Below, piece by piece: positions 12,505 to 15,913 of a stretch of 64,000 bases of DNA (the stretch's first letter is position 1; every line of letters starts with the position of its first letter). The notes beneath the pieces are model-generated. The model worked only from the letters and a program-made list of their open reading frames with translations. It had not been told where the DNA came from and ran no database searches. The DNA comes from an uncultured delta proteobacterium (GTDB lineage: Bacteria; Myxococcota; Myxococcia; Myxococcales; Myxococcaceae), in NCBI GenBank assembly GCA_963713045.1, contig CAVQKE010000005.1, forward strand, positions 268,012 to 332,011, given 5' to 3'. Made by a program: the position numbers and the translations under genes.

Positions 12505-13246
12505 TCACTTCCGGAAATACGACAGCAGCCGGCGCAGTGGATCATACGCTGCGTCCACCACGCGTTCCTTCAGTGGAATAATGGCGTTGTCCGTGATGTG
12601 GATGCTCTTCTGGACAGACCTTTGTGCAGCACTTGGTGATGTTGCAGAACCCGATGCCCTCGCTCTTCTGCAGGTCGGCCACCCGGTTCTCGACATCGAG
12701 CGGGTGCATCTCCAGCGCGGCCGTGTACAGCAGCAGGCGCGGCCCCACGAATTGTGCCTGCTTAGCGTGGTCGCGCAACACGTGACAGACGTCTTGGCAC
12801 AAAAAGCACTCAATGCACTTCCGGAACTCCTGCACCCGGTCCACGTCGGACTGTGCCATCCGCCACGTCCCGTCTGGGGCATCCGGTGGACGGGGCTTGA
12901 AGGGCTTTATCTGCTTCTTCGCGGCGAAGTTCCAGGAGACGTCGGTGACGAGGTCCTTAATCAGTGGGAAGGAGTGCATCGGCTCGACCGTCACCGGTTC
13001 CTCCAGTGGGAGGTCGTTGAGACGTGTCATACACATCAGCCGCGGCATGCCATTGACTTCCGCTGAGCAGGAACCGCATTTGCCGGCCTTGCAGTTCCAA
13101 CGCACGGCGAGGTCATTGGCCGAGTCGGCTTGAATCTGCTGCACCGCGTCCAGCACCACCATGCCCTCGGACACCTCGGTGGTGTAGTCCTCCAGCTTTC
13201 CGCCCTGCGCGCCGCCGCGCCAGATTCGAAAGGTGGCTGTGGCCAT
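12505..13246 (-). pseudogene. sdhB: succinate dehydrogenase/fumarate reductase iron-sulfur subunit, one frameshift near the 3' end
   Basis: MATATFRIWRGG...WNCKAGKCGSCSAEVNG (2Fe-2S) ...CNITKCCTKVCPE in ORF 12542..13246. It continues as IHITDNAIIPLKERVVD...YFRK in ORF 12505..12882. The frame switch is near 12605-12612. Confidence 0.9.
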
Positions 13247-13274
13247 GAGGTTGTCCTCTGCTCCCGGGGGCTAG

Positions 13275-15103
13275 CTACTTCATCTCGTCGATAATCTGCT
13301 TCAGCTCGGCCGGCATTTCTGGGCCAGGTTGACGGGCCACCTGCATCGTGCCGTCGCTTCCTTTGTGCACCACAATATTCACGGTGGCGAAGGCCGGGTC
13401 CTTGTCTGGAAAATCCTCGCGGAAGTGGCCGCCCCGGCTCTCCTTGCGCTCGATGGCCGCATGAGTGATGGCCTGGGAGACGGTGAGCAGGTTGCTTAGG
13501 TCGAGTGCGGTATGCCAGCCAGGGTTGTACTCGCGGTTGCTGGAAACGCCCACTCGGCGGGCGCGCTCCCATAGCCCATCGAGGCCTTGAAGTGCCTGCT
13601 TCATTTCCGTCTGCGTGCGAACGATTCCCACCCACTTCTGCATCACGTCTGGAGGTCATGCTGCATCTGGTAGGGACCTTCGCCGGCGGCGTTGGGACGT
13701 CCGAACGGTTCGAGCGAGCGACTGGCGGCCCGATCCTCGACTGCTGAGGCGTCAATCTGCCCCCGCCCATTCTGGCTTGCGCAAACTTGGCTGCATACTC
13801 TCCGGCGCGCTTGCCGAAGACCAGCAGGTCCGAAAGCGAATTTCCGCCCAGCCGGTTGGCGCCATGGAGTCCTGCGGCGCACTCGCCGGCAGCGAACAGG
13901 CCGGGAACGGTGGACATCTGGCTGTCGCCGTCCACCTTGATGCCGCCCATCATGTAGTGGGTGGTGGGTCCGACTTCCATCGGCGTGTTGGTGATGTCGA
14001 TGTCCGCCAGCTGTATGAACTGATGGTACATGCTGGGGAGCTTCTTGTTTGATGTGCTCCTCAGCGTTCGGAAGCTTTTCTTTGATCCACGAGATGTCGA
14101 GGAACACGCCCCCATGCGGGCTGCCGCGTCCTTCCTGATCTCGCGCACGATGCAGCGGGCGACGTGGTCGCTGGTGAGCAACTCGGGCGGGCGGCGCGCG
14201 TTCTTGTCCCCTTGCGTGTAGCGCCAGCCTTCTTCCTCGTTGTCTGCGGTCTGCGTGCGGTAGTTCGCCGGGATGTCTCGAACATGAAGCGGCTGCCTTC
14301 CTTGTTGCGCAGGACTCCGCCTTCGCCGCGCACGCCTTCCGTGACCAGGATCCCTGGACGCTCGGCGGCCAGACCATGCCCGTTGGGATGGAACTGGACG
14401 AACTCCATGTCCATCAGGTCGGCGCCAGCGTCGTAGGCGAGCGCCTGGCCGTCGCCGGTGTATTCCCAGCTATTGCTGGTGATCTTGTAGGCGCGGCCGA
14501 TGCCGCCCGGTGCGCGAGCACCACGGCCCGGGCGCGAAAGAGATGGAAGCGTCCGCGCTCGCGATCGTAGGCCGAACGCGCCCGCACCCGCGGTCGCCGT
14601 ACTTCGAGCAGAGCTGACGATGGTGCATTCCATGAGCACGTCAATCGCCCTGCTGAATGCCGTGGTCCTGCAGGGTACGAATCATCTCCAGCCCGGTGCG
14701 GTCGCCGACGTGCGCCAGGCGCGGGTAGCGTGCCCGCCGAAGTTGCGCTGCAGAATGCGGCCGTCGCGGAGTGCGATCGAAAACCGCGCCCCAGGCCTCC
14801 AGTTCACGGACCCGTTCTGGCGCCTCCCTGGCGTGCAGCTCCGCCATCCGCCAGTTGTTGACGTACTGGCCGCCGCGCATCGTGTCGGCGAAATGGACCT
14901 TCCAGCTGTCGCGGTCGTCGACGTTGGCCAGCGCCGCGGCGACGCCGCCCTCGGCCATCACGGTGTGGGCTTTGCCCAACAGCGACTTGCAGACCAGGCC
15001 CGACCTTGGCGCCGCCGGCCGACGCTTCGATGGCGGCCCGCAACCCGGCGCCGCCCGCGCCCACCACCAGCACATCATGCTCGTGGGTCTCGTACTCGGC
15101 CAT
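13275..15103 (-). pseudogene. sdhA: succinate dehydrogenase/fumarate reductase flavoprotein subunit, about 13 frame switches
   Basis: Canonical SdhA peptides are scattered over seven track ORFs in three frames: MAEYETHEHDVLVVGAGGAGLRAAIEAS (14804..15421), LVCKSLLGKAHTVMAEGG (14641..15078), GGIGRAYKITSNSWEYTGDG (14061..14639), AYDRERGRFHLF (14414..14644), EGRGSPHGGVFLDISWIKEK (13643..14377), [15 protein letters not shown]...[20 protein letters not shown] (13036..14181), MMQKWVGIVRTQTEM...IIDEMK (13275..13646). Confidence 0.9.
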
Positions 15104-15913
15104 CAGAAGAACCTCCAGTCGTGCCAGATGCCCATCGAACAGAGCCGGATGTAGACGTCGGAGAAGGCCACCGAAAACAAGCTGGGCCACGCCCAGCGCA
15201 TGTGGCGGCTGTTCAGGCAGCTGACGCAGGCGTAGGCCTCTGTTGCGTATCGGGACGCTGCGAGAGCGGTTGAACTGCCCGCCGACCAGATGCCGCAGCG
15301 AATGGCAGCCCAGCGTGTACCCGCCAGCAGCACCACATTCACGGCCAACAGCAGACGTCCCGACGCCGACCCCGAAGAGGACTTGGCCGGTGGCGGGTCT
15401 GCGAACCAAAGCGCCTTCCACACGTCGTGCACGAGAATGAGGATGAAAAGGCCAACGCCAGGTAGAGGAAGTAGCGATGGACGTTTTGGAGGATCAGCGG
15501 AAAGCCGCACTCGCCGACGGTAGTGGCTGACGCGGCTCACCCACGGCGCAGGCCGGCGGGTCGGCCCAGAAGGCTTTGTAATAGGCGCCGCGGTAGTAGT
15601 AGCAGGTGAAGCGAAACCCGGCCGGGAACGGCGAGAATGAGAGCGCCGGCGAGAAAGGGCAGCCAGCCAGGCCAGGCGGCTGGCTTCGGGCCGAACCAGG
15701 CGTGGGTTGGGATCGCCGAACAGCTCTGGCGAGTAGAACGGCGACAGGTACGGCCCGAAGGGTAGTGGTTGCATTCTGAAACGCCGCCCAGGTGGCGTAG
15801 ACGATAAAGACAGTCAGCAGCACCAACACCACCGACGGCCACGCCCACCATGCGTCCCGGCGCACCGTCTGTGCGAAGCGCGGCGGAGTGGGGCGAAATG
15901 TTGCTTGGGTCAT
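15103..15913 (-). pseudogene. sdhC: succinate dehydrogenase/fumarate reductase cytochrome b subunit (b558-type), at least 9 frame switches
   Basis: ATG at 15913 (MTQATFRPTPPRFAQTVRRDAWWAWPSVVLVLLTVFIVYATWAAF). Later pieces PFGPYLSPFYSPELFG, FPAGFRFTCYYYRGAYYKAFW, GECGFPLILQNVHRYFLYLALAF, FILILVHDVWKALWF, YTLGCHSLRHLVGGQ and AYACVSCLNSRHMRWAW...WHDWRFF alternate among three frames. The stop overlaps the sdhA ATG (TGATG). Confidence 0.75.

Follow-up and report, generated by a model that had tools for sequence, protein, structure and literature searches.

Gene decay in reductive genomes, such as that of Mycobacterium leprae, brings, besides frameshifts, an accumulation of substitutions and stop codons under a relaxed ratio of nonsynonymous to synonymous substitution rates (dN/dS), and it spares essential genes such as rpoB and secA. 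Here, we examine a heavily frameshifted succinate dehydrogenase operon, sdhCAB, that lies in a 64,000-nucleotide (nt) stretch of DNA (the window; GenBank assembly GCA_963713045.1, contig CAVQKE010000005.1, positions 268,012 to 332,011 of the forward strand) from an uncultured delta proteobacterium placed in the Myxococcaceae. As in M. leprae, many genes of this assembly are frameshifted while retaining recognisable peptide segments; unlike in M. leprae, we find no build-up of substitutions or stop codons and no relaxation of dN/dS, and both rpoB and secA are hit. Published accounts of long-read and hybrid (meta)genome assemblies trace false pseudogenes to residual indels (Sereika et al. 2022, PMC9262707; proovframe, 10.1101/2021.08.23.457338; Polypolish, PMC8812927). 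The damage described here resembles truncated genes of the IDEEL type in consisting of small indels that no comparable load of substitutions or stops accompanies, in the fragmentation of conserved and essential genes and in occupying stretches beyond the reach of polishing; it differs from them in that the errors are strongly clustered in kilobase patches, biased toward insertions and not extensions of homopolymers. The burst in sdhCAB is almost certainly a matter of data quality and not a biological feature.

The operon and the patch that covers most of it are laid out as follows.

15103..15913, minus strand: sdhC, membrane-anchor subunit of a succinate dehydrogenase of the mycobacterial Sdh1 type; 10 small indels that amount to 7 net frame switches
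13275..15103, minus strand: sdhA, flavoprotein subunit; 16 frame-changing indels that amount to 14 net frame switches, and a further insertion of 3 nt that keeps the frame
12505..13246, minus strand: sdhB, iron-sulfur subunit; a single one-base insertion near 12607-12609
11994..12497, minus strand: gene for a 167-amino-acid (aa) protein immediately 3' of sdhB; intact, adjacent to the operon in relatives too, and a clean flank
12607..15770: the stretch that we read as a low-quality consensus patch; 28 small indels (21 insertions, 7 deletions) in 3.2 kb, ~8.9 per kb

The gene ends proposed in an earlier note, made from the sequence alone, were reproduced exactly. The start codon of sdhA shares one base with the stop codon of sdhC, the insertion in sdhB shifts the final 32 codons of that gene into a different frame, and the 167-aa protein has no Pfam match. 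On the open reading frames (ORFs) of the window itself, Pfam recovers the FAD-binding, flavoprotein C-terminal and Fe-S domains only as pieces, in separate ORFs and different frames. Assignment to the Sdh1 type was made on the intact orthologous operons of two genomes of the same genus, G001 and G005, which a DNA search found at 77-79% identity and to which the protein pieces of the window are 70-87% identical. The orthologue of SdhA matches chain A of the mycobacterial enzyme (PDB 7D6V) at E=1e-221 and scores above the cut-off of NCBIfam PRK07803 (980 bits), PRK12386 likewise exceeds its cut-off, and SdhC of G005 matches chain C of 7D6V at E=6e-57. The locus thus shares with the three-subunit SdhABC of mycobacterial Sdh1 (PDB 7D6V, 7D6X) the order sdhC-sdhA-sdhB and homology in both SdhA and the one membrane subunit; it differs in that the host lineage is not actinobacterial (a genus relative is labelled Myxococcaceae at NCBI), and its function here is predicted from sequence. 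SdhB proteins of the Sdh1 type are also common in metagenome-assembled genomes (MAGs) of Gemmatimonadota, Acidobacteriota and Verrucomicrobiota.

To count the lesions, we aligned the G001 proteins, which derive from an intact operon (locus L002), to the window DNA by frameshift-aware dynamic programming. Against G001, sdhC shows 7 net frame switches (15760, 15711, 15626, 15525, 15451, 15326 and 15238), sdhA 14 (15001, 14766, 14728, 14646, 14599, 14573, 14514, 14387, 14349, 14278, 14132, 14047, 13775 and 13647) and sdhB one (~12604), at amino-acid identities of 70%, 82% and 87%, respectively. Once the frames are tracked, no in-frame stop codon is left in any of the three genes. Nucleotide alignment of the window with four relatives then resolved the single indels: 27 frame-changing events unique to the window fall within the genes (10 in sdhC, 16 in sdhA, 1 in sdhB), made up of 20 insertions of 1-2 nt and 7 one-nt deletions, and are accompanied by one intergenic 1-nt insertion and the in-frame 3-nt insertion, so that the whole set spans 12609-15770. 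The same indel sites are obtained with a short-read contig (L195) from a closer relative whose genes are intact. Even when all 492 frameshift-like candidates genome-wide are taken as the background, which is a generous rate, a span of 3162 nt should hold 0.32 events, and the probability of 27 or more is ~2e-42.

These counts bear out the earlier note, which had described an indel-only burst of at least 23 frame switches (a figure that was slightly low, if anything), had put about 13 ± 1 switches in sdhA and one in sdhB, and had seen no in-frame stops after restoration of the frames; the classification of indels against the orthologous operons that it had proposed is the one given above. It had also named four long genes of the window as uninterrupted, and all four are intact: leuS (8021-10516), katG (31067-33253), an AcrB-type pump (37995-41573) and a Ser/Thr kinase (46731-50120). 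Its description of the burst as a local anomaly holds in part. The burst is real, yet it is not peculiar to sdhCAB, as many such patches occur in the same assembly.

Indeed, a frame-tracking Viterbi scan of all 7 contigs, with a codon-usage model trained on the long ORFs of the genome, flagged 30 clusters of same-strand frame switches totalling ~54 kb, among which the sdh locus ranks only about 11th. Pfam and family searches of fragments from nine of the clusters identified the following damaged genes.

C4:931-935 kb: rpoB (L017), in at least 4 frame pieces; the only copy in a genome-wide family search
C7:480.2-485.1 kb: secA (at 483-485 kb) and neighbours (L011), secA spread over at least 4 frames; the only copy
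C4:1064.9-1067.1 kb: nrdJ, class II ribonucleotide reductase (L014), its barrel domain broken into 7 colinear pieces
C4:210.5-213.9 kb: cytochrome c oxidase operon (L012), COX1 profile colinear across several frames
C5:3.7-5.8 kb: ppk1 (L015), in 4 pieces
C3:67.3-70.4 kb: AcrB-family gene (L009), split

The same kind of damage therefore reaches essential single-copy genes: rpoB and secA, each present only once in the genome, are both split over several frames, and because a cell in which both were shattered could not live, the patches must be assembly errors. Several of the clusters are situated close to the ends of contigs, and on C2, a contig of 14 kb, the damage extends over the full length. 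A DNA search for the L009 patch in the relatives returned only paralogous matches. Two further clusters were set aside, namely L019, which looks like a coiled-coil protein instead of an error patch, and L010, for which the evidence was partial and unconvincing.

The codons recovered from sdhCAB show normal selection. dN/dS was computed only on codons matched by the frame-aware alignment, and for sdhA the pairwise values are 0.08-0.12, as compared with 0.10 between the two intact relatives; dN on the branch leading to this genome is 0.065, equal to that on the G005 branch. Values for sdhC lie a little above these, an expected effect of noise in the alignment close to the frame switches. In a genuine pseudogene with enough age to have gathered 27 indels, numerous substitutions and a number of stop codons would be expected as well. 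What we find in the sdh genes is indels without stops or relaxed selection; the high dN/dS, nonsense substitutions and restriction to dispensable genes that would mark a genuine pseudogene are all lacking.

Independent sequence of the locus is available at one edge of the patch. A search for exact matches to the protein of the intact 167-aa gene downstream of sdhB retrieved a Logan contig (ERR11571144_787480 from run ERR11571144, 1851 nt; L194) that equals window positions 10802-12653 at 1851 of 1852 positions. The sole difference is one base fewer in the Logan contig, at precisely the site of the sdhB frameshift, and the 3' end of sdhB there reads in one frame; across the 1806 nt directly outside the patch, there are no differences at all. 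The earlier note had held that the pseudogene reading would fall if resequencing restored the intact frames, and this is what is seen at the one examinable site, the Logan contig covering 1 of the 27 frame-changing positions. Homology searches for partial SdhA proteins of the same species found none (the top matches were 94% and 69% identical), and exact look-ups with FabF, with rplL beside the rpoB patch and with a 207-aa fragment guessed for the edge of SdhB were without a match. The closest intact relative found, L195, has an SdhB protein that is 94% identical, whereas its DNA is just 81.5% identical and is therefore too distant for checking whether the inserted bases are alternative alleles.

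The patches also share a signature. Non-triplet indels unique to each genome were counted in three-way alignments of this genome, G001 and G005, with the following results for this genome.

secA region: 43 unique indels in 4.9 kb, 30 insertions and 13 deletions, 8.8 per kb
sdh: 28 unique indels in 3.2 kb, 21 insertions and 7 deletions, 8.9 per kb
nrdJ region: 14 unique indels in 2.3 kb, 12 insertions and 2 deletions, 6.2 per kb
rpoB region: 8 unique indels, evenly divided between insertions and deletions (4 each); 5 of them lie within the gene, at a density there of 2.5 per kb

G001 and G005, as controls, have 0-11 unique indels. The secA and nrdJ patches thus carry the signature of sdh (6-9 indels per kb, of which ~70-85% are 1-2-nt insertions), and the rpoB patch is smaller, sparser and free of insertion bias. 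Pooled over the four patches, insertions outnumber deletions by 67 to 25 (p=1e-5). The insertions are depleted beside identical bases (19/67, or 28%, vs. 47% by chance; p=0.002) and enriched beside alignment columns that vary among the relatives (43% vs. 28%, p=0.016), the deletions favor identical neighbors (16/25), and single inserted bases are mostly G or C (42/56). This asymmetry between insertions and deletions is not explained by simple homopolymer error, and the depletion and the enrichment of the insertions both argue against the classical nanopore error in homopolymer length. By codon slot, 50 insertions fall between codons in 25 cases, between positions 1 and 2 in 14 and between positions 2 and 3 in 11, so that codon boundaries are favored (p=0.016). 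A preference for wobble positions, convincing by eye, did not hold up on counting, as 36 of 50 insertions are wobble-adjacent where two-thirds are expected (p=0.46).

Taken together, these data leave us highly confident that sdhCAB is intact in the organism and that its ~27 frame-changing indels are consensus errors within a 3.2-kb patch (12607-15770). We favor a consensus failure because the only rpoB and the only secA are broken likewise, with the sdh signature recurring in secA and nrdJ; because the Logan contig lacks the extra base in sdhB; and because the recovered codons show no in-frame stops and normal selection. The same observations support the reading preferred in the earlier note, a failure of consensus quality, there taken to be local. 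The source assembly is a MAG of 7 contigs and 4.9 Mb, with an estimated completeness of 93.65%, and its contiguity and error type suggest that it is a long-read or hybrid assembly. (Genomes of the host genus measure just 3.7-4.9 Mb, which is small for Myxococcaceae.) Under this explanation, the genome would contain ~30 patches of 1-5 kb each, carrying indels of 1-2 nt at densities of up to 6-9 per kb, with a bias toward insertions in the denser ones, and the sequence between them would be essentially exact. The leading candidate cause is that reads of two diverged haplotypes, from co-occurring strains or species, may have been merged or mis-polished; alternatively, a polishing step may have passed over the stretch. 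Several points weigh against our interpretation of the sdh burst. The remaining 26 sites are assigned by analogy with the patches in rpoB, secA and nrdJ; a second operon for succinate dehydrogenase/fumarate reductase (SDH/FRD), intact on contig C1 (133.3-136.4 kb), makes the loss of sdhCAB tolerable in principle; the module of four genes occupies another place in the genome than it does in G005 and may be accessory; and the distribution of codon slots is at odds with a pure model of retention of both alleles at wobble single-nucleotide polymorphisms, so that the mechanism of merged haplotypes is only weakly indicated.

We prefer merged haplotypes as the cause because the insertions avoid identical neighbors, adjoin columns variable among relatives and favor codon boundaries; more generally, an insertion-biased, non-homopolymer signature points to merged haplotypes more than to the classical nanopore homopolymer error. 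A gap in polishing, or a raw long-read consensus at low coverage (for instance where the polisher passed over a stretch or draft sequence was used to fill it) with no second haplotype involved, is nonetheless a serious contender that we place somewhat short of an even chance. It accounts for patches that are discrete, 1-5 kb long and sharp-edged, as at the exact agreement of the flank with the Logan contig, and for the clusters near contig ends and the wholly affected C2; moreover, errors are described as persisting where read alignment is unreliable (Polypolish, PMC8812927). The depletion of insertions beside identical bases would, however, be unusual for it, as the errors of a raw nanopore consensus favor homopolymers.

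The readings that take the indels as real fare much worse. The earlier note had entertained very recent inactivation of a redundant SDH/FRD operon, and its premise proved true: the search for a second copy elsewhere in the genome that it had called for finds the C1 operon (L025) intact and of the Bacillus subtilis type, with SdhA and SdhB matching PRK07573 (1177 bits) and PRK07570 (432 bits). A separate gene for L-aspartate oxidase (nadB) is located at C5:155.9-157.5 kb (L024). The broken operon may also be dispensable on other grounds. The module at 11993-15914, comprising the 167-aa gene and sdhBAC, is the only part of the neighborhood that this genome shares with G001 and G005; in G005 (L033), it sits between genes that are adjacent on contig C1 of this genome (479.46-479.80 kb). 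Within the genus, the module must thus have changed its position or undergone gain and loss. Furthermore, no orthologous sdh operon turned up in 4 of the 7 same-genus genomes searched. That a redundant and possibly accessory Sdh1-type operon was very recently inactivated, its loss being tolerated because the B. subtilis-type operon is intact, nevertheless strikes us as very improbable: it would require 27 indels without a single stop codon or any rise in dN, leaves the comparable bursts in the only rpoB and secA of the assembly unaccounted for and conflicts with the unshifted Logan contig at the single site under it. Slightly less probable again is that the indels are real in part of the population, a relocated, accessory Sdh1-type operon being in the course of loss by an indel-only mutational process with the second SDH taking over. 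Biological recoding, whether by programmed frameshifting or by transcript editing, could in theory restore the proteins and would draw on the perfectly preserved peptide segments and nothing else; we regard it as having practically no chance, since the 27 sites share no common slippery motif, include both insertions and deletions and recur in unrelated genes genome-wide, and since the surplus base is already missing from the DNA of the Logan contig.

One further frameshift lies outside the patch, 1.1 kb past its last indel.

16888..16892, plus strand: isolated frameshift where five G follow one another, splitting a gene of the acyl-CoA-dehydrogenase fold into ORFs 16166-16972 and 16905-17498; the scan places the switch at 16893

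This lesion is probably a separate, ordinary homopolymer error. Beyond this genome, long contigs in ENA (18-87 kb) encode truncated pieces of SdhA that measure 220-490 aa (P0001, P0016, P0026, P0042, P0043, P0076 and P0078), which suggests that other public long-read MAGs carry similarly frameshifted Sdh1 flavoproteins. The insertion-biased, non-homopolymer signature described here may help to spot the same artefact in other assemblies.

For this organism, automated annotation will present sdhCAB, rpoB, secA, nrdJ, the cox operon and ppk1 as pseudogenes or fragments. Comparative or metabolic use of the MAG should hence mask the ~30 patches (~54 kb, 1% of the genome), as the miscalled genes lower the completeness estimate (93.65%) and could falsely imply that respiratory functions have been lost.

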